DNA of 32,949 bases from Calditrichaceae bacterium. Lineage in GTDB: Bacteria; Calditrichota; Calditrichia; Calditrichales; JBFXGD01. Where the stretch lies: assembly GCA_050173015.1 (NCBI GenBank), contig JBFXLE010000033.1, positions 1-32,949 of the forward strand, read 5' to 3'. Position numbers and translations under genes: made by a program. Numbering within the stretch: position 1 is the stretch's first letter; each line of letters starts with the position of its first letter. Shown piece by piece: positions 10,029-30,981 of this stretch. Under the pieces are notes generated by a model that worked only from the letters and a program-made list of their open reading frames with translations, searched no databases and had not been told where the DNA came from.

Positions 10029-10064
10029 TGATTTACCGACAATATCTGATAAATTGCCTGTATT

Positions 10065-10364
10065 TTACATTTTTCCGGTTTCATGAATTTTTCTCCAGTC
10101 GGGCCAGGGTTCCCAGGGATCCGGAGGCCTGGGTCCCGGTGGTTTTGGATCTAAAAGGTCGCGCGTGAGTCTTAAAATCTGCATGAAACTTGTCGGCCTT
10201 TTTTCATTGAGCAGATTTTTGACTTTGGGAATATCATCAACGCTAAACCCAAGTTCGCGATGTCGCAGCGCTTCATCCGGACTCTTAATGAGCAGATTCA
10301 GAAATTCTGCGTCACGACTCGCCAAATGATACATTTTTTCCAGTTTGTTTTCTGTCGCTTCCAT
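10065..10364 (-). CDS. NHLP/Nif11-clan leader-like peptide with Pro/Trp-rich C-terminus (putative RiPP precursor)
   Basis: ASRDAEFLNLLIKSPDEAL matches the NHLP-type 'A..D.EFR..LL.DP..AL' helix. C-terminus is PKPPGPRPPDPWEPWPDW. SD AAGGTGG favours the ATG at 10364. Confidence 0.7.
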   Translation of the reverse strand: MEATENKLEKMYHLASRDAEFLNLLIKSPDEALRHRELGFSVDDIPKVKNLLNEKRPTSFMQILRLTRDLLDPKPPGPRPPDPWEPWPDWRKIHETGKM

Positions 10365-10397
10365 AATAGCCACCTTTCAAATTAAAATAAATAATGA

Positions 10398-12803
10398 CTA
10401 ATCCGTTAATTTTTTAAGATGCTCTCCGGCGATTAACGCGTTTTGGCTCAAAGAGTCAATTCTCAGACAATTTTTAAAATATTGGATGGCGAGCTCTGGA
10501 TTATTTGCTTCCTCATAAATGATACCCAGCATGTAATAGGCATCACTGAACCCCGAATCAATATTTATTGTTTTGTAAAATTCATCTTTCGCGGCATCCG
10601 GATTACCCGCAAAAAACAATGACATTCCTAATCCGTTATGATATTCAGCAATTGGTTCTCCAAGAGACAGGGCTTTTTCATAATGATCAGATGATGGTTT
10701 AAACATCCCCACTTCAAAATATGATGAGGCCAGATCCGCGTGTATATCCGTAATCCTGATTCCGCGTTCCTGCATGCTTTTAATATAGAGGTCTTCGTAG
10801 AGCTGTGATTTGGCGGAGTCTTCTGTTTCCAGACTGAGGATCGAGAGCAAACAGTAAATTTGCGGAAATACGGGCTTAATCTGAATGGAACTTTCCAGTA
10901 CATTTTTTGCCTTGTCACGGTCACCGGTTTGAAAATAACTCGCGCCAAGCAAATAATAAGCCGGTGAATATTCCCATTCCATTTCAACAATATTTTTTAG
11001 CGTTTGAATACTACCACTATAATCGTTCATCATATATAAAATTCTGGCAAGACTAAACAAAAGGATATTATTCTGCGGTGAATACTCCAAAGCGATTCGC
11101 AGATATCTCGCCTGCGCCGGATAATCATTCGCGATCATTGCCCCGGCCCAGTCGATCATTACTTCCTCGAAAGGAGTAGCGTTCGATTCCAGTTTACGCA
11201 GAATTTCGTAGTGCGTATTTGCCTGTTCCACATCTTGCTGTTGCATCAGTTTTGATATTAGCCAGATTCTCGGAGACAAAAACGTGGAATCAAGCTCAAT
11301 GGCGCGCAGCAGGTATTTTTCCGCGGCGGGATCCAGGCGAAAATTATACTGTCCCGCCTGAATAAACGCTTGTATGGCCGGTATGTTTTCTGAGCCGGTC
11401 CTTATCCAGGGCGCGATATCCGTTGCCTTGGTGGACGATATAAATTTTAACCGCAGATGGTTAAGAATTTTCACCACTATACTGTCAATTTCCTGCAAAA
11501 TATTATCTTCATCGATTAATGACCGGCTGTAAGAAAATTTGATTTCAGCGGTTTGTGATTCGACTACGCTTGATTGAAGCAGCAGCTTATTGCCAAATTG
11601 TGTGATAGTGCCGTCAACAACATAAACGATTCCAATTTCTCTGAGCCTCCTGTAGAGCGCTTCATCTCTTATAGGCGCCGTTCCGTCCTCCGAACTTCTG
11701 ATCAATCCGTTAAGACTTAAGGGATCAACAATTCCCAGCTCTTTAACACCGGTTAATTCTCTAACTATCAGATTCTGGATAAGCATGGGAAGACCTTTGG
11801 ATTCAATATTTTTTGTTAGCGTCCGGAAGGGAAGTACCCCAACACGCCACCGGTCATCCACCGGCGCCGAATTCAGGGAAATCCTGCTCGACGCGACCCA
11901 GAAAACAGTCAAAGCCACTAATGATGCGGCAATAAAATAAGTGACCGTTTTAGTCAGTTTGCGTTTTATCCCATACATTAGTCCGGCTGATTTACCCTCG
12001 AGCAGCTCCAAAACTTCCATCATCGACTGCGGACGCAAATCCGGATTTTTTTCCAGACAAAGGTCACACAATTTTTCCAGAAGAATTCTTTTTTTATGAT
12101 TGGATGGATCTATTTTCACGGGTTTTTCGTGCAGGATTGAGTAAATGACTGCCTGTTCATAATCTCCCCGAAAAGGCAGCTCTCCGGTCAACATTTCATA
12201 CAAAACAACGCCAAAGGACCAGATATCGGTTCGATGATCCACCGGATCGCCTCTGGCCTGTTCAGGAGACATATAACCTACTGTTCCCAGCGCTATACCT
12301 GTTTTTGTCAATTTTGTCTGACCTGAAAATTTGGCCAGCCCAAAATCCAGAATCCTTACCATCCCATTCGGACTAATGACAATATTGGATGGTTTTATAT
12401 CTCTGTGGATGATACCCGCATGATGAGCGCAGTTTAATCCTCGGGCTAATTGGCGTGTAATTCTCAAAATCATATCAGTTTCGAGGGGCCCGGTTCCAAG
12501 CAGGGTTTTAAGAAGATTTCCTTCGCAATAGGGCATACAAATATACAACTGACCGTCATCAGTTTCATTTATTTCATATATACTGCATATGTTTGTATGC
12601 TCTAATTTTGATACAGCCAGGGCTTCGTGAATAAATCTTTTTTTAGATTCCTCATCCCTTGTCAATTCCGGCGGGAGAAATTTAAGCGCGACTTTGCGAC
12701 CTAATTTAATATCTTCCGCCATATAAACGATTCCCATCCCGCCCCCGCCGATTTGTTTCAGAATATGGTAATGGGAAACCTTTTCACCTACGCGAACAGA
12801 CAT
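10398..12803 (-). CDS. Membrane Hanks-type Ser/Thr kinase with TolB_N/FlgO-like and TPR extracytoplasmic domains
   Basis: GGGGMG, VALK, HRDIKPSN, DFG and YMSPEQ motifs; TM at ~aa 287-305; VGVLPF; multiple TPRs. Confidence 0.93.
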   Translation of the reverse strand: MSVRVGEKVSHYHILKQIGGGGMGIVYMAEDIKLGRKVALKFLPPELTRDEESKKRFIHEALAVSKLEHTNICSIYEINETDDGQLYICMPYCEGNLLKTLLGTGPLETDMILRITRQLARGLNCAHHAGIIHRDIKPSNIVISPNGMVRILDFGLAKFSGQTKLTKTGIALGTVGYMSPEQARGDPVDHRTDIWSFGVVLYEMLTGELPFRGDYEQAVIYSILHEKPVKIDPSNHKKRILLEKLCDLCLEKNPDLRPQSMMEVLELLEGKSAGLMYGIKRKLTKTVTYFIAASLVALTVFWVASSRISLNSAPVDDRWRVGVLPFRTLTKNIESKGLPMLIQNLIVRELTGVKELGIVDPLSLNGLIRSSEDGTAPIRDEALYRRLREIGIVYVVDGTITQFGNKLLLQSSVVESQTAEIKFSYSRSLIDEDNILQEIDSIVVKILNHLRLKFISSTKATDIAPWIRTGSENIPAIQAFIQAGQYNFRLDPAAEKYLLRAIELDSTFLSPRIWLISKLMQQQDVEQANTHYEILRKLESNATPFEEVMIDWAGAMIANDYPAQARYLRIALEYSPQNNILLFSLARILYMMNDYSGSIQTLKNIVEMEWEYSPAYYLLGASYFQTGDRDKAKNVLESSIQIKPVFPQIYCLLSILSLETEDSAKSQLYEDLYIKSMQERGIRITDIHADLASSYFEVGMFKPSSDHYEKALSLGEPIAEYHNGLGMSLFFAGNPDAAKDEFYKTINIDSGFSDAYYMLGIIYEEANNPELAIQYFKNCLRIDSLSQNALIAGEHLKKLTD

Positions 12804-17464: not shown

Positions 17465-18340
17465 CTAATACTCTTTTTTTACCATGATTCTCTGAAAATC
17501 TTTTTCAGCTATTATTCTCTGAAATTCTTTATCCGCCATGATTTTTTGATAATCCTTATCAGACATTAATCTTTGAAATTCCTTGTCAGCCATAATTCTT
17601 TGGAATTCTTTATCTGCCATGATACGCTGATAGTCTTTATCCGCCAGAATTTTCTGAAAATCTTTATCAGCCATTATTCTCTGAAATTCCTTATCTGCCA
17701 TAATCCGCTGGTACTCTTTATCCGCTAATATTCGCTGGAAATCTTTATCTGACATTATTTTCTGAAATTCTTTGTCCGATTTGACGCGTTGAAAATCTTT
17801 ATCCGACATAATTTTTTGAAAATCCTTGTCTGCCATTATCCGCTGCATGTCTTTATCGGCTATAATTCTCTGGAATTCTTTATCCGCCATGATTCTCTGA
17901 TAATCTCCATCAGCCATAATCCGCTGATAATCGGTATCAGCAAGGACGCGTTGATAGTCTTTATCCGCCATAATGCGCTGCAAATCCTTATCGGCCATCA
18001 TTCGTTGTAATTCCTTATCGGCCATGATCCGCTGATATTCTTTGTCGGCAATTATTCTCTGGAAATCCCCGGAAGCCACTATTTTTTGGAAATCCGCGTC
18101 TGCCAATAGTTTTTGGAATGTGTCATTCTGCAACAAATTCTGAATTTCCGGACTATCCAGTTTCACATCCGTTTCGCTGATCTGGTCCGCGCGGTACTTA
18201 TCCGCTTTTTCCACGCCTCCGATGGTGCCTTCCACACCGTCCGAATTTGGTGGCGGATACAGGAGCGAGAAATAAAGAATTATCGCGACAATGACCGCCG
18301 CGCCCCCAAATAACGATGTTTTTCTTGATTGTGAATTCAT
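17465..18340 (-). CDS. Membrane-anchored protein with 23 tandem 9-aa repeats [AS]DK[DE][FY]Q[RK]I[MIL]
   Basis: N-terminal TM, a GTIGG linker, then repeats filling aa 80-291; G6 SD upstream. Confidence 0.9.
   Translation of the reverse strand: MNSQSRKTSLFGGAAVIVAIILYFSLLYPPPNSDGVEGTIGGVEKADKYRADQISETDVKLDSPEIQNLLQNDTFQKLLADADFQKIVASGDFQRIIADKEYQRIMADKELQRMMADKDLQRIMADKDYQRVLADTDYQRIMADGDYQRIMADKEFQRIIADKDMQRIMADKDFQKIMSDKDFQRVKSDKEFQKIMSDKDFQRILADKEYQRIMADKEFQRIMADKDFQKILADKDYQRIMADKEFQRIMADKEFQRLMSDKDYQKIMADKEFQRIIAEKDFQRIMVKKEY
17468..18103 (-). repeat. Coding 27-bp tandem repeat (~23.5 units)
   Basis: 27-nt periodicity with many synonymous differences between units. Confidence 0.95.
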
Positions 18341-18441: not shown

Positions 18442-19209
18442 TCAATCCGCGATTATCGTTTTATGCGTAAATATGTTAGTATCCGGACCGGCAATGGTGA
18501 TTTTGAGGAGGGATTCAACGGTAATCGTTCGTTGGAATGTCAGAACACAGTCGAGATCATCAATATTTATTATCTCTAATTTACCTATTTGGGTATTTAA
18601 GCCGTGTTCACCCGGTGTCCGCAATCTGAAATTTTCGAACAATAGATGCTCATTGTCGTACTCCACAAACAGATCATACTGCTCTTCACCCCTTAAATCT
18701 GTCTCAATCCGGATAAGGTCTTTGGTCTGGACAACTTTAATGCTCCCCTTAATTCCGTTTGTGTGAACAGAAACTGATTCAACCACCGGGTTATACATCT
18801 GTTTTTCAAGTCCCATAGTTCCATAGAGACTGCTATTATCAACGCGTATATTTAGCGGCCATAATACAATAACGATAATTCCAAAAAGAACACCCAGAGC
18901 GAAGGTGAACGCCATTTTCGGACGCGGGGATGAGAACCAGTTTTGAATCATTTCCTGAACATTCCCGCGGTATGGATCCCGAGCGTATTTCTCTTTATTT
19001 ATAGAATCCATGATTCTTTCACGCATTTTTTCGGGAACATCCGCCTGCGGTACTTTATCAAGCAATACCACTGTTTCTTTCAATTCCTGATAAAAAATTT
19101 TGGCATCGGCGTGCTCCAGGAGATATCCCGTGAGTAGTTTTCGCTCTCCCGCGGATATTACTCCGTCAAGTTCTTTATGCATGAGTTCGATATATTTCTC
19201 ATCAATCAT
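18442..19209 (-). CDS. Transmembrane anti-sigma factor
   Basis: Overlaps the ECF sigma stop (ATGATTGA). N-terminal ELDG.IS..E...L..YL helix pattern lacks the HxxxCxxC cysteines. Single TM, then a beta-rich external domain. Confidence 0.8.
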   Translation of the reverse strand: MIDEKYIELMHKELDGVISAGERKLLTGYLLEHADAKIFYQELKETVVLLDKVPQADVPEKMRERIMDSINKEKYARDPYRGNVQEMIQNWFSSPRPKMAFTFALGVLFGIIVIVLWPLNIRVDNSSLYGTMGLEKQMYNPVVESVSVHTNGIKGSIKVVQTKDLIRIETDLRGEEQYDLFVEYDNEHLLFENFRLRTPGEHGLNTQIGKLEIINIDDLDCVLTFQRTITVESLLKITIAGPDTNIFTHKTIIAD

Positions 19210-19750
19210 TTTGTAACATACCATATTTTAGTAGAACATCTTTTAACATCTGCCGGGCGGTAAAAAGTCGTGATTTAACTTTTTTTTCCGGGATATCGGC
19301 TATGTAGGCGATCTCTTCGTAACTGCATCCCTGGAAATGTTTTAATATGATCAGTATCCGGTAATTATAAGGCACTTCCATTAAGGCTTCCTGAATCCTT
19401 TCATTTCTCTCCCATTCTTCAAAGATCTCGTCCGGAGTTTTCCCTTTTGAAACCATACCTTCCGTCAAAGTTTCGATACGCTTTCGCTGATTCAAATAAT
19501 TGAGTGTTTCATTTAAGGCAATCCGGTATATCCAGCTGAAAAACTTGTATTTTGGATTAAATGATCTCAGGTTTTCATAAACCTTGATAAAAACCGATTG
19601 AGTGATATCCTCCGCGTCATCGAATCTGTGAATCATTCGGTAAACCACATTAAAGATGGTTTTTTGATACTTATCCACCAGAATTTCAAATGATTTTATA
19701 TCACCCTTGATACATTTCTTTACCAGGATTGAATCATTGCTTTCACTCAT
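19202..19750 (-). CDS. ECF RNA polymerase sigma factor
   Basis: Region 2 (DAEDITQSVFIK, FFSWIYRIALN) and region 4 (SYEEIA, VKSRLFTAR); 182 aa. Confidence 0.95.
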   Translation of the reverse strand: MSESNDSILVKKCIKGDIKSFEILVDKYQKTIFNVVYRMIHRFDDAEDITQSVFIKVYENLRSFNPKYKFFSWIYRIALNETLNYLNQRKRIETLTEGMVSKGKTPDEIFEEWERNERIQEALMEVPYNYRILIILKHFQGCSYEEIAYIADIPEKKVKSRLFTARQMLKDVLLKYGMLQND

Positions 19751-19779
19751 AATACAATCTGACTATAAAAAAGTTGGTT
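19751..19779 (-). promoter_or_regulatory. Putative autoregulatory ECF promoter/binding motif
   Basis: AACCAACTTT-N12-TTGTATT directly abutting the sigma ATG. Confidence 0.55.
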
Positions 19780-19813
19780 CAGTTTTTTTTTAATCCTTTA
19801 GATAATTAATCCG

Positions 19814-20098
19814 TCACTCAATTTCAAAAATCATATCGAACCCGGCATATGTAAATACTTCTTTTATATGCCGGTTCATATTTTTTAATTTTAATCGATG
19901 TCCGGAGTTATTCAGGCGTTTCTGCGTCATTAATAAAACGCTCAGACCCGCGCTGGATATGTAATCAAGATTCTCAAAATTTACATCGCATGAACTGATG
20001 ATTTCTTCAAACACGGCTTTTGCCTTATCCGTCTGAGCCGCGTCTAAACGGCCAGAAAGCAAAACAGTACTATCTTCTCCCAATTTAATTTCAAACAT
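19814..20098 (-). CDS. STAS-domain anti-sigma-factor antagonist (RsbV/SpoIIAA-like)
   Basis: LSGRLDA and LDYISSAGL phosphoacceptor motif. Confidence 0.9.
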   Translation of the reverse strand: MFEIKLGEDSTVLLSGRLDAAQTDKAKAVFEEIISSCDVNFENLDYISSAGLSVLLMTQKRLNNSGHRLKLKNMNRHIKEVFTYAGFDMIFEIE

Positions 20099-20516
20099 TT
20101 GTCCGCCTTAATTTTTTCACCAAAGTGATTACCGCTTTATTTTCACCATACTCATATTCAATCCGGTCAACATATTGTGTCGCGAGATGAACACCTATTC
20201 CCCCGGTCTCACGATCAGTCAGGGTTCGGGTTGTGTCATATTTTTTTGCTTTTCTGATATCAAATCCTTTTGTATTGAATTCACTCATTCTCACAATCAA
20301 TTCATCCTCCGCGCGCATGAGTGTGATCAATATGTCCTCTTTATTATCAGCGTTGTATTTTACCATATTTGTAAATAATTCCTCGACCGCGAGGGACAAT
20401 CCAAACGCGGAATCTTCATCCACATCGCTTCTTTTAACAAATTCGTCGATAAACTCAAAAACTTTCTCCACTTCCCGAAGGCTTCTTTTAAAACGTTTTT
20501 CCATTTCATTCCGCAT
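20091..20516 (-). CDS. RsbW/SpoIIAB-like anti-sigma serine kinase (HATPase_c)
   Basis: LAVEELFTNMVKY N-box and GGIGVHL G-box. Confidence 0.9.
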   Translation of the reverse strand: MRNEMEKRFKRSLREVEKVFEFIDEFVKRSDVDEDSAFGLSLAVEELFTNMVKYNADNKEDILITLMRAEDELIVRMSEFNTKGFDIRKAKKYDTTRTLTDRETGGIGVHLATQYVDRIEYEYGENKAVITLVKKLRRTNV

Positions 20517-20531
20517 AAAATTTGTTTTGAC

Positions 20532-21857
20532 TTAAATTATTTTTATCGCGATCATGGCGATATCATCCGCCTGAGCGGCATCCCCGGTAAAACGCCGGAG
20601 TTCCTTTTTTACAGATTCTATGACCATCCCGGCGGATTCGCGCGCGGATATTTTCACCGCGCTCATCATTCTCTCCATCTGAAACATCTCTTCGTCGCCG
20701 TTGACCGATTCTGTCACCCCGTCAGTGTAAATAAAAATCTGATCGCCGGAATTCAATGCTGACTTGTGCAATTGATAATCATAATTCGGCGATACATTCA
20801 GCGCGCAGCCTTTGACTTCAATCATCTTCAGGGAATCATCCGATCCGCGGTAAAACAGGAAAGGATTATGTCCCGCGTTTGAATAGTACAGGACCTTTTC
20901 ACGGAAGTCGATCACCAGAAAGAGCATGGTTACAAATAATTCAGGAGGTAAAGTCCGACTTAAGATAGAATTGATTTCTCCCAGTCCCCGGTCGGCCGAA
21001 GTATAGTTTAATGTAATCGATTGCAGGATGCCTTTGATCATCGTCATCACCAGCGCCGCGGAAGGACCGTGACCTGACACATCGGCAATGACGATTCCCG
21101 TTTTTTGATCACCGAGGTCAAAGAAATCAAAATAGTCTCCGCCGACAGCATCCGCCGGAAGAAAATAACTTGCCACATCCATCCCCGGAGATTGTGGGTT
21201 CTTTTCAGGTAGCAGACTTTGCTGCATCTTGCGGGCGAGATCCAATTCATTTTCAAGCCGTCTTTTCTCATGCGCTTCTGTTTGTAACTGCGAATTACGG
21301 ATCAGCTGTCCCGATTGAGCCGCGATGATAGAGAGAAGTCTTAGATCGTCTGGAGTAAAAGGAGTTTCCGTTTTTTTATTGGTGACCATCAAAACGCCAA
21401 TTATTTTCGCCTTTAACCAGATCGGAACACAAAGTATACTGCGGATGTCTTCCTGTTCTTTCAAAGTGGTTTTGAAGCGATCATCCTCCGCGAGATGATC
21501 CACCAATAACGGTTGACGGTGCTTTAGTACCCAACCCGTGATATGCGTACCCACTCTGTAGGTCATTAATCTGCCTGAATGATCCGCCTGCCTGATTAAT
21601 GTCTGAAGCGGTTTGTCCTTCTGTTCCGTCACCAGCAAAATTGAACCCTGTTCGGCTTTAACCGCTTTGATCGATTTCTCTACAATCAGATCCAGCATCT
21701 CATCCAGTTCAGAGGCTCTGCCCGCGGCGATAGCCAGTTCATTTAGAACGGTCAACTCATCAACCGCTGATTTTAGCCTTTCAACTTCGTTTTGAAGACG
21801 GAGGATTTCAGACATTTCTTTGTCTGCTATTTTTTGCTGTGTGGTGGATTGATTCAT
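20532..21857 (-). CDS. Coiled coil-GAF-PP2C (SpoIIE/RsbU-like) phosphatase
   Basis: VGGDYFD, ADVSGHG, NAGH, YTDGVTE and DDIAM motifs; GAF NKK..F...D. The G5 SD favours a start at 21857 (MNQST). Confidence 0.93.
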   Translation of the reverse strand: MNQSTTQQKIADKEMSEILRLQNEVERLKSAVDELTVLNELAIAAGRASELDEMLDLIVEKSIKAVKAEQGSILLVTEQKDKPLQTLIRQADHSGRLMTYRVGTHITGWVLKHRQPLLVDHLAEDDRFKTTLKEQEDIRSILCVPIWLKAKIIGVLMVTNKKTETPFTPDDLRLLSIIAAQSGQLIRNSQLQTEAHEKRRLENELDLARKMQQSLLPEKNPQSPGMDVASYFLPADAVGGDYFDFFDLGDQKTGIVIADVSGHGPSAALVMTMIKGILQSITLNYTSADRGLGEINSILSRTLPPELFVTMLFLVIDFREKVLYYSNAGHNPFLFYRGSDDSLKMIEVKGCALNVSPNYDYQLHKSALNSGDQIFIYTDGVTESVNGDEEMFQMERMMSAVKISARESAGMVIESVKKELRRFTGDAAQADDIAMIAIKII

Positions 21858-21923
21858 TCCACCCCCTGACATTAAAACATAAACCGGCTTTACCGGATGT
21901 TTTATGAACTTTTAATCCGGCTC

Positions 21924-22268
21924 TCACGAAGATTTGTAGTGTTCTACGGCTTTGTCAACGGATTCATAAATTTCAAAAACACGCACTAATTGAGTCATCA
22001 CGAAGATACTGCGCACTTTCTCTGTCAGCCTAGACAAACATAATTCTCCTCCGGCATTACGCACCGTCGTCAGACTGCGCATCAATGCACCGACTCCCAT
22101 ACTGTTCATCCAGTTTACTCCCTGAAGATCAATAACAATTTTTTTCGCTCCACCGCCAATTAAGCTTCGAACTTCGTTGTGCAGATCATCGGTTTCCGGG
22201 AAACCCATAATTTTCCCTTTTAACCATAAAATCCCCACTTCTCCATCAATTTTGTCTTTGGTTTTCAT
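21924..22268 (-). CDS. STAS-domain anti-sigma-factor antagonist
   Basis: IVIDLQGVNWMNSMGVG motif; start reassigned to MKTKDK after a G6 SD. Confidence 0.88.
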   Translation of the reverse strand: MKTKDKIDGEVGILWLKGKIMGFPETDDLHNEVRSLIGGGAKKIVIDLQGVNWMNSMGVGALMRSLTTVRNAGGELCLSRLTEKVRSIFVMTQLVRVFEIYESVDKAVEHYKSS

Positions 22269-22529
22269 TGAGCCCCCCACAATTAAGGATAAAGATGAAA
22301 TGTAGTTGTAATTTCTAAGATTAGACCGGAATATTTTATAAATTTTCACACAAAAAGAAGTAGGAAATGTAATAAATCGTATTCCGCGCAGAAAAAAGTG
22401 GCGCTCGTTTCCAGACCGGATCATACGGTAAATGAAATGACGGTTCTGACTCAGCCTATCTGCCGGAAATCTAAATATGAAATTAGTAAAAGTAAACGAT
22501 TGATTTTTTTTCTACGTTCTCCTAAATGA

Positions 22530-22958
22530 TCATTCAACAACGATTTGAGGTGGTGATCCTCCTGTCGCGAACTCCAGATCCGCCAGACAAAAAACAGCAT
22601 ACGGATTTGGCCCTTTTTTAGCCAGATTTCCCACTGTCACCCGGAATTCTTCGCCGTCATCAATTGTATGGGTATATTTTCCAACAAGCTTCTGATCTAA
22701 AAACTGAATAAATACTTTTGATCCGTACGCGGTCCAGATTATCTTATCGCCTTTTTTTACAACAACGGTCGTATTTGTGGTATCAGCAGCCTGGACGACT
22801 TTCCATCCCTTATTTTTTACTTTCAGTATTGAGAGATGATGCTCTTTAGACGCGTTCTGAGCATTTAATAAAAATGAAGGAGCCGGCGCCGCCGCAAAAA
22901 GAACCGCGATGATCAGCAACGATAGAACACCATATAAAATTTTGATCGATCTCATCAT
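22530..22958 (-). CDS. Secreted small beta-sandwich (cupredoxin-like) protein
   Basis: Signal peptide; VVVKKGDKIIWT and PYAVFC segments; C-terminal SPPQIVVE. Confidence 0.75.
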   Translation of the reverse strand: MMRSIKILYGVLSLLIIAVLFAAAPAPSFLLNAQNASKEHHLSILKVKNKGWKVVQAADTTNTTVVVKKGDKIIWTAYGSKVFIQFLDQKLVGKYTHTIDDGEEFRVTVGNLAKKGPNPYAVFCLADLEFATGGSPPQIVVE

Positions 22959-23117
22959 ACCCCCCTGGAATTAATATTACCAACTATAGACATATTGTGT
23001 CGCTATATTCTTGATTAATACATTATTTATCGTGCTCTAATCTGTTCAGTGACATCAAAAAATCATCTGAAATCTCCTCCCTGAAATGCGATCGGCTCGC
23101 TCTGAACTTATCATCTG

Positions 23118-25721
23118 TCATTCCAGATAACGCTTAAAACTTTCATCGGCCAGTAATTCGCGCAATTCCGGCTGATTTAGAATTTCAGATTTCGAATACC
23201 CGTTTTCCAACGCCTTCCCGATCCAGACAATCGCTTTTTTTCTCTCACCTAATTGTTCATAAACTGTTCCGGCTTCATACATGACATGGATGCTTTTTGG
23301 CGCTATTTTAATGGCCCGTTCGATCATCAATTCTGCCTTGATTCTGTTTCCGGTTATCGCGTAGTATCCCGCAAGGCGCGACGTGATATCCGGATCATTT
23401 GGATTAATCAATCTTCGTGTCTCGGCCAGTTCAATCGCTTTTTGATAAAACTTCTGAGCGTTTTTTCTTTCTTCCGGAATCCAGTAATATGCGGATGCCA
23501 GATTTCCCCAGATCAAAAAATCATTCTCATTCATTTCCAGGGCCGCCTTATACATCTCCGCGGCTTGCGTAAATTTCCCTTCAATAAAGTAAAGGGTTCC
23601 TAAGTTTGACGCCACCAGATACGACTTTTGTAACCTGAATGACTGCTCAAACATTTCCCCGGCCTTTTTCCATTTTTCCTGCATATAATAAATACCGCCT
23701 ATATTATTATATCCGCGGCTGTTATCGGGTGTAAGTCTGACGACATGCTGAAATTCTTTAATCGCTTCATCAAAACGACCGTGCCGGTAATAATACACTC
23801 CAAGATCATTATAGCCTGCCCAATAATCCGGTTTCAGTTCGATGGCTTTTTTAAAAGTGACCTCCGCTTCATTGAAGAGCTCCTGCGATTCATATGCTTT
23901 TGCCAAACCGCGGTAGGCATCGGCATCGGTCGGATTAATCTTTAACGCCCGGCTGAAATCCTGTACTGCCTCTTCATATTTTCCGGTACCGGCGTGAACC
24001 ATCCCAAGAGCTGTATTTACCGGCGCCAGGCGGGCATTTAGAACAAATGCCTTTTCACAGGAGGCAACAGCCAAATCCGCATATTCAACTTCTTTTGACG
24101 CGTAAAACTTTCTCCAGTAAGCCTCCCCGAGCCCCGCGCGCGCCTGGGCGTACAGGGAATCACGTTTTAAAGCCTGACTGAACAAACTGATCGCCGCGTC
24201 GATATTTTCGTACTCTTCATATCGCTGGAGATAACCACGACCCTGAAGATAAAATTCATAGGCCAGCGGATCACTCGTTCCCCCTTCTCTTAGCACTTTG
24301 TGTGATTCGGGATTGAGCCTGAGATTGAGCATCGTCATTAGTTTTCCTACAGATCTGTCCTGCAACAATGTCAAATCCGCTTCTTTTACATCAATGACGG
24401 TAGAGCTGATTTGCCTCAAAGTCGATGCATCCACAAGCGTTAGAGTCAGACGAAAAACATCCTTCAATAACTGCAGACTGCCCGTCACCGCGATATTCGC
24501 TCCAAAAATCCGGTGCGCCTCCCCCGGACTGCTGATACCATTTCGACGCACTTCACTGAACGGCACAACCCAAAGCGATCCATGGAATTGCTCAAGCTGT
24601 GACATATTACTGGTGAGTATTTCCGCCAGACCGTCACAAAGAGCGGCCTGCCCCGGATCTCCTCCGATATTCGTTAGAGGCAGCACAAGCAAATGCTGCA
24701 CATCAGGTACCCCGGAAGTTAACAGTTCGGTGCTGATATTACCGAACCTGCCCGTAAGAATGATTCCCGCGAGTATTATAATAATCACGATTGCTGAAAA
24801 TTTTACGGTTTTCTGGTTAAAGAAAACCATCCGCCCAATTCCTTTGGCGGATTTGGTACGTGTGTCCGGGTCCTGCGTCTCATTGGAGTAGATATTATTC
24901 AGATCAGCCAGAACTTCCCGCATGGATTGATAACGGAATTCCGGCTCCTTCTCGAGACACTTTGATATAATCCCGGCCAGCCGCGGCGGAACATCCCGAT
25001 TAATTTCTAAAACCGGGACCGGTTCATCATTTACAATAGAATACATCACGGCCTGTTCATAGGGTCCGCTAAACGGCACTTGTCCGGTTGGCAGCTCGTA
25101 CAAAACAACACCAAACGACCAGATATCGGACCGCTGATCGGCCTCGTCTCCCTTGGCCTGCTCCGGTGACATATAAGCCGCCGTGCCAAGCGTGGATCCG
25201 ACAATCGTGAGCTGTGGATTTCCCCGGATCTTTGCCAGTCCAAAATCCATGATTTTTATTATTCCGTCGCTTGTGAGCATAATATTACTGCTCTTTATAT
25301 CGCGGTGAATGATTCCCTTTTCATGCGCCGTATTCAATCCGGTTGCAGCCTGAATCGCGTAACTGATCAACTCATCCGGAGATATCGCGGGTATTTTAAT
25401 ATCATCATTCGGCTTCTCCCGTCCATCCTGAATGATATCTTTTAGTTCCTGCCCGTTGATATACTCCATAACGATAAATATTTCATCATCCACTTCCTCA
25501 ATGGCATGAACGGTTGCAATATTAGGATTGTTAAGCGATGCGGCTGCTTTTGCTTCAGTTTTGAACCGTTCTTTTTCCTTTGGATCGATACTCACCTGAC
25601 GCGGTAAAAATTTGATGGCCACACGCCTCTCGAGCTTTGTGTCTTCGGCGAGATAAACCACTCCCATACCGCCTTCACCGATTTTTTCGATGATGTGATA
25701 ATGTGAGATTGATCTGATCAT
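23118..25721 (-). CDS. Membrane Ser/Thr kinase with TolB_N-like and TPR domains
   Basis: GEGGMG, HRDIKSSN, DFG and YMSPEQ motifs; TM; LLVLPL; ~10 TPRs. Close paralog of 26205..28820. Confidence 0.93.
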   Translation of the reverse strand: MIRSISHYHIIEKIGEGGMGVVYLAEDTKLERRVAIKFLPRQVSIDPKEKERFKTEAKAAASLNNPNIATVHAIEEVDDEIFIVMEYINGQELKDIIQDGREKPNDDIKIPAISPDELISYAIQAATGLNTAHEKGIIHRDIKSSNIMLTSDGIIKIMDFGLAKIRGNPQLTIVGSTLGTAAYMSPEQAKGDEADQRSDIWSFGVVLYELPTGQVPFSGPYEQAVMYSIVNDEPVPVLEINRDVPPRLAGIISKCLEKEPEFRYQSMREVLADLNNIYSNETQDPDTRTKSAKGIGRMVFFNQKTVKFSAIVIIIILAGIILTGRFGNISTELLTSGVPDVQHLLVLPLTNIGGDPGQAALCDGLAEILTSNMSQLEQFHGSLWVVPFSEVRRNGISSPGEAHRIFGANIAVTGSLQLLKDVFRLTLTLVDASTLRQISSTVIDVKEADLTLLQDRSVGKLMTMLNLRLNPESHKVLREGGTSDPLAYEFYLQGRGYLQRYEEYENIDAAISLFSQALKRDSLYAQARAGLGEAYWRKFYASKEVEYADLAVASCEKAFVLNARLAPVNTALGMVHAGTGKYEEAVQDFSRALKINPTDADAYRGLAKAYESQELFNEAEVTFKKAIELKPDYWAGYNDLGVYYYRHGRFDEAIKEFQHVVRLTPDNSRGYNNIGGIYYMQEKWKKAGEMFEQSFRLQKSYLVASNLGTLYFIEGKFTQAAEMYKAALEMNENDFLIWGNLASAYYWIPEERKNAQKFYQKAIELAETRRLINPNDPDITSRLAGYYAITGNRIKAELMIERAIKIAPKSIHVMYEAGTVYEQLGERKKAIVWIGKALENGYSKSEILNQPELRELLADESFKRYLE

Positions 25722-25863
25722 AGATATAGCCCGTATGAAAGATTTTGAAAACCATAATCCGGAGACAGGAAAAGAACAGTTCGTGAGACTATTCAGGATT
25801 CACACCCATTTTATACCCATACATGATGCGACGGTAAATCTGTCACTCCTGAGGCAACACATT

Positions 25864-26163
25864 CTAGCGAACAATCATTTCCGGTGTTTCTCTTTTAACC
25901 CCCGCGCAAGCGGTTCCGTTTGACAGCGTAATTGTATAACCGTAGGTATTGCTGGGCGCCGTGTCTTTGATTGTCGCCTTGTGGTACTTCCCGTCATTTG
26001 GCACGGTCAAAGGAAAATCCGATGATAAAATCGAATCATTGCTTCCGGCGTTGACGATATACGAATTTGCGTCATTCGATTTGAACCGGATATTATTCCC
26101 TTTGGGAATTTCGATTTGCATTGGACTTGGATTGCAATTGGTAATGGTGACATCCTTAGACAT
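25864..26163 (-). CDS. Small cupredoxin-like beta protein without signal peptide
   Basis: G5 SD; IEIPKGNNIRFK and TYGYTIT segments; C-terminal TPEMIVR; two Cys. Confidence 0.75.
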   Translation of the reverse strand: MSKDVTITNCNPSPMQIEIPKGNNIRFKSNDANSYIVNAGSNDSILSSDFPLTVPNDGKYHKATIKDTAPSNTYGYTITLSNGTACAGVKRETPEMIVR

Positions 26164-26204
26164 ACTTCCCCCTGTGTGGTTAGATGATGATTCTGGTTAA
26201 ACGA

Positions 26205-28820
26205 CTAATTTTTGTACCTTTTCTCAAGCTCCGCGTATCTTGTGTCTTTTCTTAAACCGGTCAGCACCGGATTTCTGTTGATTTCATCGATGGAATATCC
26301 GTTCCCGACGGCCTTTTCTATCCACCTGATTGCCGAGTCCCTTCTGCCGATCTGCTCATACGTCGCGCCGATCCTGAACCATATATTAATTTCTTTTGGA
26401 TTTAGTTCAACGGTCCTGTTCAAATAAACAAGGGTGCTGTCAATCTGACCGCTCTCGATAAAATAAGTCGCCATGCGCGATAAAATATCCGCGTCCTTCG
26501 GATTAATCATAAGCCGTTCACGGGCAAGCGACTCGGCTCGGGCAAACGCTTTTAACGCCAATTCTTGATTAGGAGGAGATGATAAACGGCATGAGGTGCC
26601 AAGATATCCCCAAACCTTAAAATCCGTATCCTGCATGCCCAGAGCCTTCTCATACATTTGAGCGGCATCATTATAATTTCCCTCATAAAAATACATGGTC
26701 GCCAGGTTGGAATAAATACTGTAATCCGGCTGAATCTCCAGCGCCTTTTTAAACATTCTGATGGCTTCATCCTGTTTTTCAATATAGAAATACATCGCGC
26801 CCAGATTCCGATACCCTCCGGCGTTCTGCGGAGTCAGCGCCACCACCTGCTTAAATTGCTGTATCGCGTCCTCATAGCGTCCGTGACGATACAAAAAAAC
26901 CCCGAGATCATTATATCCGCCCCAATAATCCGGTTTTAGCTCTATCGCTTTTTTATAAACGGATTCCGCTTCCTGCAGGCGGCCCTCAGCCATATATGTA
27001 TTCGCGTTTCCCCTGTACGCATCCGCGTTAAAGGGATCAATCTGAAGCGCGCGCTGGAATTCATAATGCGCTTTTTCATAATTTCCTTTTTTTTGATTGA
27101 TGGCTCCCAGGGTCACATATATCGGGGCGACACGGGCATTGATATCAACCGCGCGATTGCAATAATTTGTGGCCTTCTCAATCCATTGAACATCTTCCGT
27201 TTCTTCAAATTTACGCAGGTACGCTTCTCCGAGCCCGGCAAAAGCCAGGGCATAGGAAGGATCTTCAGTGACGGCGCGTTCGAACAATTCGATTGCCAGA
27301 TTTAAATTCTCCACTTTTGTATAGTTCTGCATATACCCGCGTCCCTGAAGATAAAATTCATACGCGCCGGGGTTTGAAGTCTTTCCGGCATTCAAATTCT
27401 CAAGAATCTCCGGCCTGAGGTCGATGTTCAGCATATCTGCCAGTTTCATTACGGCCTCATCCTGAATGATACCTAAATTCTTCATCGGATCATCAATCAT
27501 TTTTGAATCAAGTTGTCTTAACGTGTTTGATTCCACCAAATTCATGGTCACCCGAAGACCTTCGCTGTTTCTCTGCACACTTCCTGTGATCGCCAGATTG
27601 ACGCCGAACATTTGTCTGGCATCGCTCACCGTCCTGATGTTATTTGCGCGCATCTCGCTTGCGGGGATCACCCACAATGCCCCCTCAAACTGTTCAAGCT
27701 GATTGAGTTGACTTGTCAGTGTCTCCGCGAGTCCGTCGCTTAATGCCTGGTTTGACGGATCATTGCCGATATTGGTAAACGGAATAACGGCGATGTGCAA
27801 AACATCCGGCACGGAACTGAGCAGATTACCACCGGGCAGCAAGTAGCGTCCGGATATAAAAATCACCGCGATGAACAGAATCCCAAGAGCAATAAGAGAA
27901 ATTCGTTTTCGCAGAATTGGAGCCAGCGCTTTATTTCCGGTTACGGCCGGGGATGTTTTCAAATCCTTACCGACCGATAATTCGATTTCTTCCCCGTTAT
28001 TTATATATTTTTCAAGTTTTCTTAAATCTTCAAGCAAGTCTTCTGTATGATTGTAGCGCTCATCCCTGTCTTTTGCCAGCATGTTATTAATCATCTGATC
28101 AAAAAACTCCGGAATCTCCGGACGAATATTTGATGGCGGTTCAGGCTCCTCATTCATAATTGAGTACATGACGGCCGATTCGTATTCTCCCTTGAATGGA
28201 AGTTCTCCCGTAAGCATCTCGTATAACACCACACCGAACGACCAAATGTCCGCTCTCAGATCCACATCACCGCCCATGGCTTGTTCGGGGGACATATAGG
28301 CAACCGTTCCCAGGGTCGAACCGATTTGCGTGACTTGTGTCCCGCCGCCGATCTTCGCAAGACCAAAATCCATAATTTTCACATTGTTTTTGATATCCGG
28401 CGCCAGCATGATGTTCGCGCTCTTTATATCCCGATGAATAATTCCCTTCGCATGAGCCGCGTTGAGACCCTCCGCAATTTGAATCGCGATGGAAAGGGAT
28501 TCTTGTATATCCATCGGTCCGGATTGAATTTTTTTCTTCAGATCCTGGCCTTCCAGATATTCCATGACGATAAACATGGTATCATCCACTTCTTCAATGG
28601 CATATATTGTCGCTGAATTTGGATGATTAAACGCGGCGGCGGCCTGCGCTTCAATTTTGAACCGATCCCGGTCGGTAGGAATGGACGCAACCATCTGAGG
28701 CAGGAATTTTATGGCAACCTGGCGCTTGAGTTTGGAGTCTTCGGCCTTGTAAACAATCCCCATGCCCCCTTCGCCAAGTTTTTCAACTATCTTATAATGT
28801 GCTATCAACTGTCCGATCAT
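26205..28820 (-). CDS. Membrane Ser/Thr kinase with TolB_N-like and TPR domains
   Basis: GEGGMG, HRDIKSAN, DFG and YMSPEQ motifs; TM; IAVIPF; TPR array. Confidence 0.93.
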   Translation of the reverse strand: MIGQLIAHYKIVEKLGEGGMGIVYKAEDSKLKRQVAIKFLPQMVASIPTDRDRFKIEAQAAAAFNHPNSATIYAIEEVDDTMFIVMEYLEGQDLKKKIQSGPMDIQESLSIAIQIAEGLNAAHAKGIIHRDIKSANIMLAPDIKNNVKIMDFGLAKIGGGTQVTQIGSTLGTVAYMSPEQAMGGDVDLRADIWSFGVVLYEMLTGELPFKGEYESAVMYSIMNEEPEPPSNIRPEIPEFFDQMINNMLAKDRDERYNHTEDLLEDLRKLEKYINNGEEIELSVGKDLKTSPAVTGNKALAPILRKRISLIALGILFIAVIFISGRYLLPGGNLLSSVPDVLHIAVIPFTNIGNDPSNQALSDGLAETLTSQLNQLEQFEGALWVIPASEMRANNIRTVSDARQMFGVNLAITGSVQRNSEGLRVTMNLVESNTLRQLDSKMIDDPMKNLGIIQDEAVMKLADMLNIDLRPEILENLNAGKTSNPGAYEFYLQGRGYMQNYTKVENLNLAIELFERAVTEDPSYALAFAGLGEAYLRKFEETEDVQWIEKATNYCNRAVDINARVAPIYVTLGAINQKKGNYEKAHYEFQRALQIDPFNADAYRGNANTYMAEGRLQEAESVYKKAIELKPDYWGGYNDLGVFLYRHGRYEDAIQQFKQVVALTPQNAGGYRNLGAMYFYIEKQDEAIRMFKKALEIQPDYSIYSNLATMYFYEGNYNDAAQMYEKALGMQDTDFKVWGYLGTSCRLSSPPNQELALKAFARAESLARERLMINPKDADILSRMATYFIESGQIDSTLVYLNRTVELNPKEINIWFRIGATYEQIGRRDSAIRWIEKAVGNGYSIDEINRNPVLTGLRKDTRYAELEKRYKN

Positions 28821-28851: not shown

Positions 28852-29610
28852 TTATCTGATATTTTTACCGCTTACAACGCTGTAATGAGAAACCTGTATG
28901 TCTTCGCTTGTCTTCATATCACCTCTAAAGTCTTTTTCCAGCGCCATTTTCCATTGATAGAAACTTGAAAAAGTGTGTTCAACCAACTGAGTGAGATCTT
29001 CAAACTTTCCATTCTTTTCATAATTTTCCGCGTCTTCCCGGCTATCCCAGATGGTGACTGACATAACGTCATTATCTTCGCTCATATTTCCGATAAGAAA
29101 AGCGTACAGACACCCGGGAATATTATTTAGCGCGGGGATGATCTTTTCAGAGTAAATGTTTTTGAATTCTTCCAATTTCTCTTTCTGTATTTTCGGTGAG
29201 ACAATCCTTACATACATCCGGGATGTATAATTTTCTATCCGTTTTTTTTCATTCTTGTTTATCAACACTGAATATTCTTTAAGAACCGGCTCTTCTGTTA
29301 CCGGTTTATACTCCAGTTCCAGCTGTTCAGATAATTGGATTTTCCACTCTGTTGATTCCGCCAGATAGGGTTTAAATTTCTTCATCAGCTTTGCAAATGT
29401 CCCGCTTTTTTCGCATTGTTCCGCGTTCTCGCCCGAATTCCAGAAACTGAGTGAAATAAATTCATCCGGTCGCACACTGCTGTTGATTAATCCGATGAAT
29501 ATGACGCCTTCAAGCTGTTTAACTTCCGGTATAACGGTGTATTGGAAAAAATTACGAAAGGGTTCCCGGTAAACGGGATTTATTTTGATCTGAAGCATTC
29601 GCATGAACAT
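28852..29610 (-). CDS. Tandem ABM (antibiotic biosynthesis monooxygenase-like, dimeric alpha/beta barrel) domain protein
   Basis: Two internal repeats: MFMR..PEVKQLEG..SLSFWNS and MYVR..PALNNIPG..SVTIWDSREDAENY. Confidence 0.8.
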   Translation of the reverse strand: MFMRMLQIKINPVYREPFRNFFQYTVIPEVKQLEGVIFIGLINSSVRPDEFISLSFWNSGENAEQCEKSGTFAKLMKKFKPYLAESTEWKIQLSEQLELEYKPVTEEPVLKEYSVLINKNEKKRIENYTSRMYVRIVSPKIQKEKLEEFKNIYSEKIIPALNNIPGCLYAFLIGNMSEDNDVMSVTIWDSREDAENYEKNGKFEDLTQLVEHTFSSFYQWKMALEKDFRGDMKTSEDIQVSHYSVVSGKNIR

Positions 29611-29664
29611 ATTTTACCCCCCATGTTATGCGATCACGCGCTTTTTTTAGACACATTTAAATTT

Positions 29665-30981
29665 CTATTTTTCCTGCCCCGTTCGCTTCACCACAACAAC
29701 CGTCATATCATCCATCTGAGTACTTTCACTGCTAAAATCAAATACATTTTTCATGATGACCTGAATCAGTTCAGCGGCAGACAGGTCGCGGTTTTTCTGA
29801 ACCACCTCGTATAACCTCTGTTCACCGAACTCCTCCTCGTCCACATTCATCGCTTCAGTTAATCCGTCAGAATAAAGAAGGAGTAGATCACCCGTGTTAA
29901 ATGACACTCTGTCCTGATCGTATGAATATTTTTCAACGAATCCGACAACGATTCCCCCGGTTGTCAATCGGGAACACTCCCTGTCCCCCCTGAGCAAAAA
30001 CGGAATATCATGTCCGGCATTCGTATAAATCAAATGATTCGATTTATTATCAATGATTCCATAAAATAACGTCGCAAATTTATCCAGATCCGTACTTCTG
30101 AATATCAACTGATTTGAGCGTCCGATACATTCCTTCGGTCCCGATTCAAGCATCATTGTCTGTCCGCGTAGAGTCGCCTGGAGATTGGACATTAGAAGCG
30201 CGGCCGGCATACCCTTACCGGAAACATCTCCGAGGCAGATCGCCAGCCGTGATTCATCCACTTTGATAAAATCATAATAATCACCACCCACATCTTTCGC
30301 GGGAATACTCTGTCCGGCAATATCATAGCCTTCAAAATGCGGGTAATCTTTGGGCAGCAGAATTTTCTGTATCTCGGTTGCCAGTCTCATTTCCTCCTGA
30401 ATGCGGAAAAGATTCTGCTCCTCCTCATATAATCGCGCGTTTTCAATCACTTGCGTTGACTGTGACGCGATGATCGAAAGCAGTCTTTGATCTTCCGTTG
30501 TAAAACCGCTCACATGTTTTTTATTGAAAGCGGTCAGCAGGCCTATCATCTCTCCCTTGAGAATTAACGGGACGCTCAAAAGCGACTGCACCGGGAGATC
30601 CACGTCTTTTGGCTTGATAAAACGGCTGTCATTTTTCAGGTCATTTACAAGAAGCGGTTGTCTGTTTTTTAACATCCAGCCGGTCAGCTGTGTATCCATG
30701 CGATAGGGAAGAAACTTGGAACTGTCATCCGCCTTCCGGACCATTGTGTGAAACGGCTTACCGGGATCATGTTTATCCAGCAGCATAACCGCTCCCTGCT
30801 CCACATGGAGATGCTTAATACACTTATGAATGATCAAATCAATGACACGTTCCAGTGATAATGTTGAACTTATCGCGATGGATATTTCATTAAGAATTGA
30901 TAATTCTTCGATGCCGATTCGTAACCGGCGATTTTCTTCCTCGAGCTGTGTCAATTTTTTGGATAACTGGTCGATTTCCAT
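29665..30981 (-). CDS. Coiled coil-GAF-PP2C (SpoIIE/RsbU-like) phosphatase
   Basis: VGGDYYD, GDVSGKG, NAGH, YSDGLTE and DDMT motifs; paralog of 20532..21857. Confidence 0.93.
   Translation of the reverse strand: MEIDQLSKKLTQLEEENRRLRIGIEELSILNEISIAISSTLSLERVIDLIIHKCIKHLHVEQGAVMLLDKHDPGKPFHTMVRKADDSSKFLPYRMDTQLTGWMLKNRQPLLVNDLKNDSRFIKPKDVDLPVQSLLSVPLILKGEMIGLLTAFNKKHVSGFTTEDQRLLSIIASQSTQVIENARLYEEEQNLFRIQEEMRLATEIQKILLPKDYPHFEGYDIAGQSIPAKDVGGDYYDFIKVDESRLAICLGDVSGKGMPAALLMSNLQATLRGQTMMLESGPKECIGRSNQLIFRSTDLDKFATLFYGIIDNKSNHLIYTNAGHDIPFLLRGDRECSRLTTGGIVVGFVEKYSYDQDRVSFNTGDLLLLYSDGLTEAMNVDEEEFGEQRLYEVVQKNRDLSAAELIQVIMKNVFDFSSESTQMDDMTVVVVKRTGQEK

Follow-up and report, generated by a model that had tools for sequence, protein, structure and literature searches.

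The question raised by this locus is what a small, cupredoxin-like protein does beside a membrane-bound protein kinase. In the window analysed, the whole stretch of 32,949 nucleotides (nt) of contig JBFXLE010000033.1 from a Calditrichaceae bacterium (assembly GCA_050173015.1), two putative kinase genes (K871 and K867) lie in a row on the minus strand, and each of them is followed by a gene for a small protein (S99 and S142, respectively). A preliminary description made from the sequence alone had taken each small protein for the ligand of the kinase encoded before it. The open reading frames (ORFs) of the four genes were confirmed at the coordinates that it had given, as were the protein ends TPEMIVR (S99) and SPPQIVVE (S142). 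The genes and their parts are the following:

26205..28820, minus strand: K871, predicted membrane Hanks-type Ser/Thr kinase, 871 amino acids (aa), from Pfam and hydropathy.
About 28041-28796, minus strand: K871 kinase domain (aa 9-260), Pfam Pkinase (PF00069), expectation value (E) 4.1e-52.
About 27846-27902, minus strand: K871 single transmembrane segment (TM, aa 307-325), a lone hydropathy peak.
26208-27824, minus strand: predicted extracytoplasmic part of K871, a TolB_N/FlgO-like domain (sub-threshold) plus tetratricopeptide (TPR) repeats (TPR families in Pfam).
25864..26163, minus strand: S99, leaderless member of the kinase-linked cupredoxin-like family, 99 aa, from the family profile.
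25867-25887, minus strand: predicted C-terminal strand of S99, TPEMIVR.
23118..25721, minus strand: K867, paralogous predicted membrane Ser/Thr kinase, 867 aa, from Pfam and 49% identity to K871.
About 24912-25700, minus strand: K867 kinase domain (aa 8-270), PF00069, E 7.7e-54.
About 24750-24806, minus strand: K867 single TM (aa 306-324), from hydropathy.
23121-24734, minus strand: predicted extracytoplasmic sensor and TPR repeats of K867.
22530..22958, minus strand: S142, predicted exported-type family member, 142 aa, from an AlphaFold2 (AF2) model, Foldseek and hydropathy.
22857-22958, minus strand: signal-like leader of S142 (aa 1-34), a hydrophobic N-terminus.
22533-22856, minus strand: predicted cupredoxin-fold domain of S142 (aa 35-142), from the AF2 model and structure alignment.
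22533-22556, minus strand: predicted last strand of S142, SPPQIVVE.

The gaps between these genes are 41 nt (K871-S99), 142 nt (S99-K867) and 159 nt (K867-S142), and the ATG codon of S142 is preceded by a GGGGGG ribosome-binding stretch. S142 and S99 are each single-copy in the genome. A promoter scan of the window gave results no better than shuffles, and a terminator scan placed no terminator on the minus strand within the kinase-to-small-gene gaps.

The explanation placed first here is that the region holds two ancient paralogous signalling modules of two genes each, side by side. The first part of each module would be a membrane Hanks-type kinase whose kinase domain lies in the cytoplasm and is joined by one TM helix to an extracytoplasmic sensor, made of a TolB_N-like domain and TPR repeats. 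The second part, encoded downstream and probably co-transcribed, would be a single-domain protein in which the cupredoxin beta-sandwich has been kept and the copper site lost. The small protein would act as a dedicated partner that binds its own kinase and tunes or relays its signalling, a reading to which we give about an even chance. To our knowledge, activators and partners of bacterial Hanks-type kinases are largely unknown outside a few model systems. The unnamed family that includes both small proteins (about 880 clusters) accompanies one kinase architecture, as a genetic partner, almost without exception in two or more phylum-level groups and in metagenomes, and it offers a concrete candidate, open to test, for an accessory subunit or a substrate of the kinase.

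The linkage was surveyed downstream of homologous kinases, defined by an architecture of kinase domain, one TM, TolB_N-like domain and TPR repeats. In the 86 genomes of the window's phylum, the extracytoplasmic part was recognised in 26 kinases (E <= 1e-40); two of them lie at contig ends, and a small ORF with the tail described below was found on the same strand directly downstream of all the 24 that could be assessed. When the two phylum-level groups were pooled, 41 of 43 kinases were followed by a profile-positive small ORF. One of the two exceptions has its contig end 48 nt past the stop codon, and the other is followed by no more than a divergent 196-aa ORF that carries the tail. The independent tests of this linkage are the second phylum-level group, a scan of a genome collection and a scan of metagenomes. 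In the second group (151 genomes), 19 of the 23 matches to the family profile lie directly after such a kinase. Of the four exceptions, L072 follows a PP2C gene and L085 a peptidase gene, one is a 39-aa fragment, and the last is L074, whose twin, the metagenome locus L105, has the kinase about 380 nt upstream. A full kinase is present directly upstream at 12/12 S142-type loci of the genome collection, four of them new. The metagenome loci were found with a DNA pattern drawn solely from the small-protein motif, and a kinase lies upstream at seven of the eight, the eighth being cut at the contig start. Adjacency of the small gene to this kinase architecture is therefore near-universal at the loci examined.

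Other arrangements were also observed at individual loci. In L075 (G208:C130, about 1450-2421), two leaderless members that differ from each other (100 and 106 aa) stand in tandem behind a single kinase. A module is also present in G082, a complete genome of one contig. The K867-type kinase of L057 / L037 (G084:C3) is split into ORFs of 420 and 475 aa, with one in-frame TGA and an intact small gene, which may reflect a pseudogene or an assembly error. Two more Ser/Thr kinase genes stand in a row after the small gene of L060 (G037:C13, 4376-8309), and therefore kinase arrays around such a module exist beyond the window. The module of L054 is flanked by a gene for an MjaI-type restriction endonuclease and by an AbiEii/AbiEi toxin-antitoxin pair (375-818, 4493-5729).

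The relationship between S142 and S99 is detectable solely with broader profiles and not with pairwise methods: BLASTP of S142 against S99 produced no alignment, and hhalign of profile A1 against profile A2 gave a probability of 1.7%. A broad profile was built from 23 ORFs located downstream of homologous kinases of the same phylum, leaving out S99 and its ortholog, and was searched against all 28,930 six-frame ORFs of the genome of at least 50 aa. S142 ranked first (E 7e-44) and S99 second (E 7.2e-5), the next best ORF having E 0.78. With an 11-sequence profile lacking both the S142 class and S99, S142 was again first (E 0.0023) and S99 second (0.012). The alignment of S99 to the family profile spans the whole domain (profile positions 41-126), beyond the tail alone, and the KG[DN]xIx[WF] strand and the Tyr strand previously noticed in both proteins align mutually in it. 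The shared ending P-x-[IM]-[IV]-V, also noticed before, was formulated as [ST]-x(0,1)-P-x-[ILVM]-[IV]-[IV]-x(0,5)-end and was found in 5 of the 9,878 six-frame genome ORFs of at least 80 aa used as control set, S142 and S99 being two of these five; its first part, [ST]-(x)-P, occurs in 23/25 family tails. To judge from the comparison with a same-genus genome, S99 and S142 are both under purifying selection (ratios of non-synonymous to synonymous substitution rates, dN/dS, of 0.108 and 0.233, respectively).

A profile search of 1.84 billion representatives, with clusters at 50% identity, has revealed a family of 883 clusters at E <= 1e-3, or 158 at E <= 1e-10. Among the best 150 of the 883 clusters, 143 representatives are small (230 aa or less), nearly all of them matching up to the C-terminus, and the strict tail pattern is present in 119 of these. 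No model in Pfam or NCBIfam names the family: S142 and S99 matched 0 Pfam families at E <= 0.01, and 0 families were matched by eight further small members scanned. Phylum hints for the Atlas clusters pointed to Acidobacteriota, Pseudomonadota and Gemmatimonadota, as candidate carriers only. The seven long profile-matching representatives are repetitive beta-sandwich proteins; the four that were scanned (P0012, P0039, P0127 and P0146) contain Ig or Cupredoxin_1 repeats, and a kinase domain was found in none. Fused kinase-cupredoxin forms were likewise absent among the longer proteins aligned to the family, which is weak evidence. One of the long proteins, P0127 (1166 aa), has nine Cupredoxin_1 repeats and matches the family profile at E 4.8e-12 summed over 7 stretches, a match that fits a distant cupredoxin origin of the family.

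Two leader states were found among the 143 small representatives: 50 have a hydrophobic leader (median 142 aa), 87 lack it (median 110 aa) and 6 are ambiguous. Both states are represented in the window, as had been seen earlier. The N-terminus of S142 has its hydropathy peak (2.48) over residues 5-23, preceded by R3 and K6 and followed by LNAQ, and this pattern recurs in 12 of the 14 other aligned orthologs. By hydropathy this leader is signal-like, and both a cleaved leader and a membrane anchor would fit. In S99 there is no hydrophobic N-terminus, and its open frame reaches 11 codons upstream of the ATG, leaving no room for a leader.

The leader state follows the phylogeny of the kinases. 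In a quick maximum-likelihood tree (IQ-TREE) of 41 kinase C-terminal regions, K867 falls in a clade of 19 rows (support 98), 17 of whose partners carry a leader, and K871 in a clade of 5 rows (support 99), in which 5/5 partners are leaderless; the leader label requires 3 changes on this tree versus about 14 when shuffled. The nearest BLASTP relatives of S99 (33-36% identity, E 1e-13 to 2e-17) are exactly the partners of the remaining kinases of the K871 clade, and these kinases belong to the second phylum-level group. Kinase clades, as reconstructed here, track small-protein subtypes, i.e. the two have co-diversified. Because the partners are clade-matched, the modules of the window would be old paralogous pairs put side by side, with no recent tandem duplication. 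A pairing so tight, ancient and clade-matched argues for a dedicated partnership, and in the genetic sense the pairs are cognate, as previously proposed, by near-universal adjacency and co-diversification. When the window was compared with the same-genus genome, no cassette break was seen, the sliding identity being uniform (0.72-0.91) across the TPR tail and the small gene in this single comparison.

The AF2 model of S142 is of high confidence (predicted local distance difference test, pLDDT, 87.8) and has nine to ten strands. Foldseek against the Protein Data Bank (PDB) yielded at least 63 matches at E <= 0.001, with plastocyanin, pseudoazurin and amicyanin leading at E 1e-4. When residues 35-142 were re-aligned (VIA), Z scores of 8.2-10.2 to cupredoxin structures were obtained, including Brucella FtrB (10.2), nitrosocyanin (9.7), plastocyanin (9.4), the Bacillus anthracis Cupredoxin_1 protein 4hcf (9.3), amicyanin (8.9), Vibrio MakD (8.9), EfeO (8.4) and CupA (8.3). 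According to this model, S142 has a cupredoxin fold. At the profile level, Phormidium plastocyanin is matched by the family profile A4 at E 7.3e-4; the next matches of this profile are nitrite reductase, pseudoazurin and CoxII (E 0.1-2). Profile A1, which is narrower, produced matches at chance level only, and PF13473 (Cupredoxin_1) was matched by 1/24 members at a sub-threshold E 6.9e-4. In the profile alignment, the KG[DN]xIx[WF] strand corresponds to GDtVkW of plastocyanin and the Tyr strand to its YtYY. The AF2 model of S99 is poor (pLDDT 57.6), and Foldseek on it returned generic beta-sandwich rows at E >= 0.08. The fold of S99 is therefore based on profile homology to the family only, and by this membership S99 would also be a cupredoxin-fold protein.

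The preliminary description had called both proteins cupredoxin-like without the full set of copper ligands, and this was borne out by the model and the Foldseek run for S142, by the family profile for S99 and by a check of the ligand columns. The first copper His of plastocyanin aligns to Val82 of S142, and residues 125-142 of this protein include neither His nor Met, so that none follows the Cys. In S99, C86 and M96 are present, but none of the residues that separate them is His. No conserved ligand column for the His-Cys-His-Met (or Gln) set was found in the family alignments, and a Cys is present in 76/143 small representatives. With the defining ligand set absent from the alignments, the family is classed as other than blue copper proteins. 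The P-x-I-V-V tail is modelled in S142 as the last beta-strand of the sandwich (residues 138-141, pLDDT about 95), as in plastocyanin, and is not a free tail. The conserved loop FAxGxSPP precedes this strand, at that end of the fold which would house the copper.

S142 resembles type-1 blue copper proteins in its modelled Greek-key beta-sandwich (Z 8.9-9.7, root mean square deviation, rmsd, 2.4-2.9 over 83-92 residues), in the strands GDxVxW and YxYxC and in a chain that ends on the same last strand. It differs from them in that there is no copper site, Cys is absent in about half of the family representatives, many members are predicted to be cytoplasmic, and the genomic linkage is to a gene for a Ser/Thr kinase and not to redox enzymes. 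FtrB (rmsd 2.2 over 86 residues at Z 10.2), 4hcf, MakD, the N-terminal Cup domain of EfeO and the Cu(I) chaperone CupA are similar in being small accessory domains and no electron carriers. However, those proteins are found in metal-transport or toxin operons, several of them with metal ligands, whereas here the partner is a kinase and no ligands are conserved; no sequence-level match of the family profiles to any of the five was found. The family would thus be a further case of the cupredoxin fold reused without copper.

The two kinases are 49% identical over their full length, and both contain HRDIKS and DFGLAK, i.e. the catalytic HRD and DFG motifs; by their Pkinase domain and these motifs they are assigned to the Hanks-type (eukaryotic-like) Ser/Thr kinases. 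Many TPR matches (Pfam) were obtained in the C-terminal half of both. Hydropathy has revealed one strong hydrophobic segment per kinase, near residues 306-325, and with a single TM at this position the C-terminal 540 residues should be extracytoplasmic. Residues about 333-489 of K871 gave faint matches to TolB_N (E 0.017) and FlgO (E 0.035), both below the cut-off, and a PDB sequence search with the stretch just after the TM gave no match.

By analogy, the closest functional precedents would be accessory proteins of Hanks-type kinases that are unrelated in fold, namely those of the TagR-PpkA and GlnH/GlnX-PknG systems. In the H1 type VI secretion system (T6SS) of Pseudomonas aeruginosa, the periplasmic accessory protein TagR (TagQRST) reportedly acts on the periplasmic part of the membrane Hanks kinase PpkA. 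The folds are different, no T6SS genes are present here, and the TagR system is said to be without leaderless cytoplasmic forms. In Actinobacteria, PknG is a TPR-containing Hanks-type kinase that receives its input through accessory proteins of the same operon, GlnH and GlnX (PMC6069109, PMC9769921). In that system GlnH binds solutes, GlnX resides in the membrane and PknG is soluble, whereas here a membrane-spanning kinase would have a cupredoxin-fold partner, and there is no homology between the systems. A literature search, with subscription journals outside its coverage, found no paper tying cupredoxin-like proteins to Hanks-type kinases.

In the preferred reading, where the small protein binds its own kinase and regulates or relays its signalling, the likely site for exported forms such as S142 would be the periplasmic TolB_N-like/TPR sensor, contacted via the conserved loops at the former copper end (YAVFC and FAxGxSPP). 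With leaderless forms such as S99, contact would take place in the cytoplasm. Several points weigh against this reading. The binding is inferred from genetics, and in the first phylum the ORFs downstream of kinases served both to build the profiles and to assess the linkage. A few members lie away from such kinases (L072 after its PP2C gene, L085 after its peptidase gene). The same domain occurs with a leader (50/143) and without it (87/143), with at least three leader changes on the kinase tree, and since both states are found on the same kinase topology, a single binding site on the kinase cannot serve all members. Every model meets its main difficulty in this coexistence of exported and cytoplasmic forms, which is also the most interesting point raised and a handle for experiments. 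An intermolecular disulfide between the Cys of the kinase motif LC[DE]GL and the Cys of the small protein was considered and rejected, because the two Cys do not co-vary. A complex predicted for K867 (330-867) and S142 (35-142) from separate alignments and without controls scored 0.00, which is evidence neither way. In a more specific form, proposed tentatively and with somewhat less than even confidence, the unit would be widespread and consist of a membrane Ser/Thr kinase with a TolB_N-like/TPR sensor that works only with a dedicated, co-diversified, cofactor-less cupredoxin subunit setting its signal specificity or carrying its signal, and this subunit would have been moved repeatedly between periplasm and cytoplasm.

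Direct binding with a regulatory or relay role is ranked first, and a substrate role and an effector role without contact come after it. Most members are leaderless and hence share a compartment with the kinase domain, as would be required if the small protein were the dedicated phospho-substrate or output of the kinase, in a way comparable to the small FHA substrates of mycobacterial kinases. Phosphorylation would then take place on the conserved Ser/Thr just ahead of the invariant Pro, and the PP2C phosphatase nearby would reset the protein. The [ST]-(x)-P motif of 23/25 tails is in agreement with this proposal, and so are the GAF-SpoIIE genes found directly upstream in 4/12 related loci and near the kinase in the window. 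However, neither the kinase domain nor ATP is within reach of exported members such as S142, and Ser/Thr is not universal at this position, with K-P-P or E-A-P in the S99-type relatives L081, L082 and L086 and D-P-E-P in L076, L079, L080 and L084. In the S142 model, moreover, the position sits in a structured loop before the last strand. A substrate role is considered unlikely.

Adjacency alone does not show binding, and the small protein could be co-expressed with the kinase and act without contact as an effector, e.g. as an envelope or cytoplasmic binder of a ligand or metal. Cytoplasmic and exported forms would suit a ligand that occurs on either side of the membrane, and the nearest structures include the metal-handling FtrB (Z 10.2), EfeO (8.4) and CupA (8.3). 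Against a metal binder, no metal-ligand set is conserved in the family (His is replaced by Val in S142, Cys is found in 76/143, and no conserved His or Met follows it). The tight co-diversification also exceeds what co-expression would require, and this role appears improbable.

In the preliminary description, the small proteins were secreted or released ligands sensed by the kinase as a TPR receptor, the leaderless form reporting lysis or leaving the cell by a non-Sec route. The cognate pairing and the co-diversification would be expected from such a model, which we nevertheless regard as very unlikely. Leaderless forms are the majority (87/143), hence no oddity that calls for a lysis signal or non-Sec export. 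A folded domain of about 11 kDa released from other cells would need to cross the outer membrane of a diderm envelope to arrive at a periplasmic sensor, and an LptD gene in the related locus L059 fits a diderm. In addition, the presumed tail is a core beta-strand in the model, and no cassette-like identity break is seen versus the congener.

Finally, a distant relationship to the DP-EP family (DUF1888, SO1698), whose member SO1698 is reportedly self-cleaving (at an Asp-Pro bond close to the C-terminus), so that a peptide released at the conserved X-Pro bond would be the TPR ligand, is highly improbable: SO1698 structures appear at Foldseek ranks 46-47 (E 8e-4), DP-EP is the nearest Pfam-named Atlas cluster for S142 and S99 (scores 0.77 and 0.80, below the meaningful level) and some tails read G-D-P-E-P, but PF08985 matches 0/24 members at E <= 10 and gave nothing above cut-off in the 86 genomes and nothing at these loci, SO1698 is outside the top 50 by Z, and most members have Ser-Pro instead of Asp-Pro.

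Genes of partner-switching type surround the two modules, and the ones next to them are the following:

29665..30981, minus strand: GAF-SpoIIE (PP2C) phosphatase, upstream of the K871 module, from Pfam.
21924..22424, minus strand: STAS-domain protein, directly downstream of S142, Pfam STAS E 1.5e-15.

Altogether, the surroundings (18442-22424 and 28852-30981, minus strand) include two GAF-SpoIIE phosphatases, two STAS proteins and a double ABM-domain protein, as well as an RsbW-like 141-aa protein, an extracytoplasmic function (ECF) sigma factor and an anti-sigma factor, these last three named from sequence only. The four related loci with a GAF-SpoIIE phosphatase directly upstream of the kinase are L055, L056, L062 and L063. 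A STAS gene follows the small gene in L053 and, from reading the sequence, in L026, and ABM and STAS genes lie upstream of the kinase in L058. These GAF-PP2C and STAS neighbours suggest that the output of the modules might feed a phospho-relay of the partner-switching type.

A third kinase gene of the window had been described as also followed by a gene for a small Pro-tailed protein:

10398-12803, minus strand: K801, third kinase, with a different extracytoplasmic part.
10065-10373, minus strand: S102, 102-aa ORF with a Pro/Trp-rich tail, after K801.

Such an ORF does follow K801, but it is unrelated to the family and genus-restricted, and the window thus holds two modules and not three. S102 was not matched by the family profiles, and it was seen in the same genus and in two weak matches only; likewise, apart from the two weak matches, the pair of K801 and S102 is conserved nowhere but in the same-genus genome. 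A faint match of S102 to NHLP/Os1348 leaders (E 0.016) was obtained, and S102 could be a precursor similar to those of ribosomally synthesized and post-translationally modified peptides (RiPPs), encoded beside a kinase. The 315-aa ORF after S102 (region 9081-12803, minus strand) has a faint polyprenyl-synthase-like match.

Adjoining the anti-sigma/ECF sigma pair (18442-19750), a gene at 17465-18340 (minus strand) encodes a 291-aa protein in which an N-terminal hydrophobic segment is followed by about 25 tandem units of 10 residues (ADK[DE][FY]QRIM-like).

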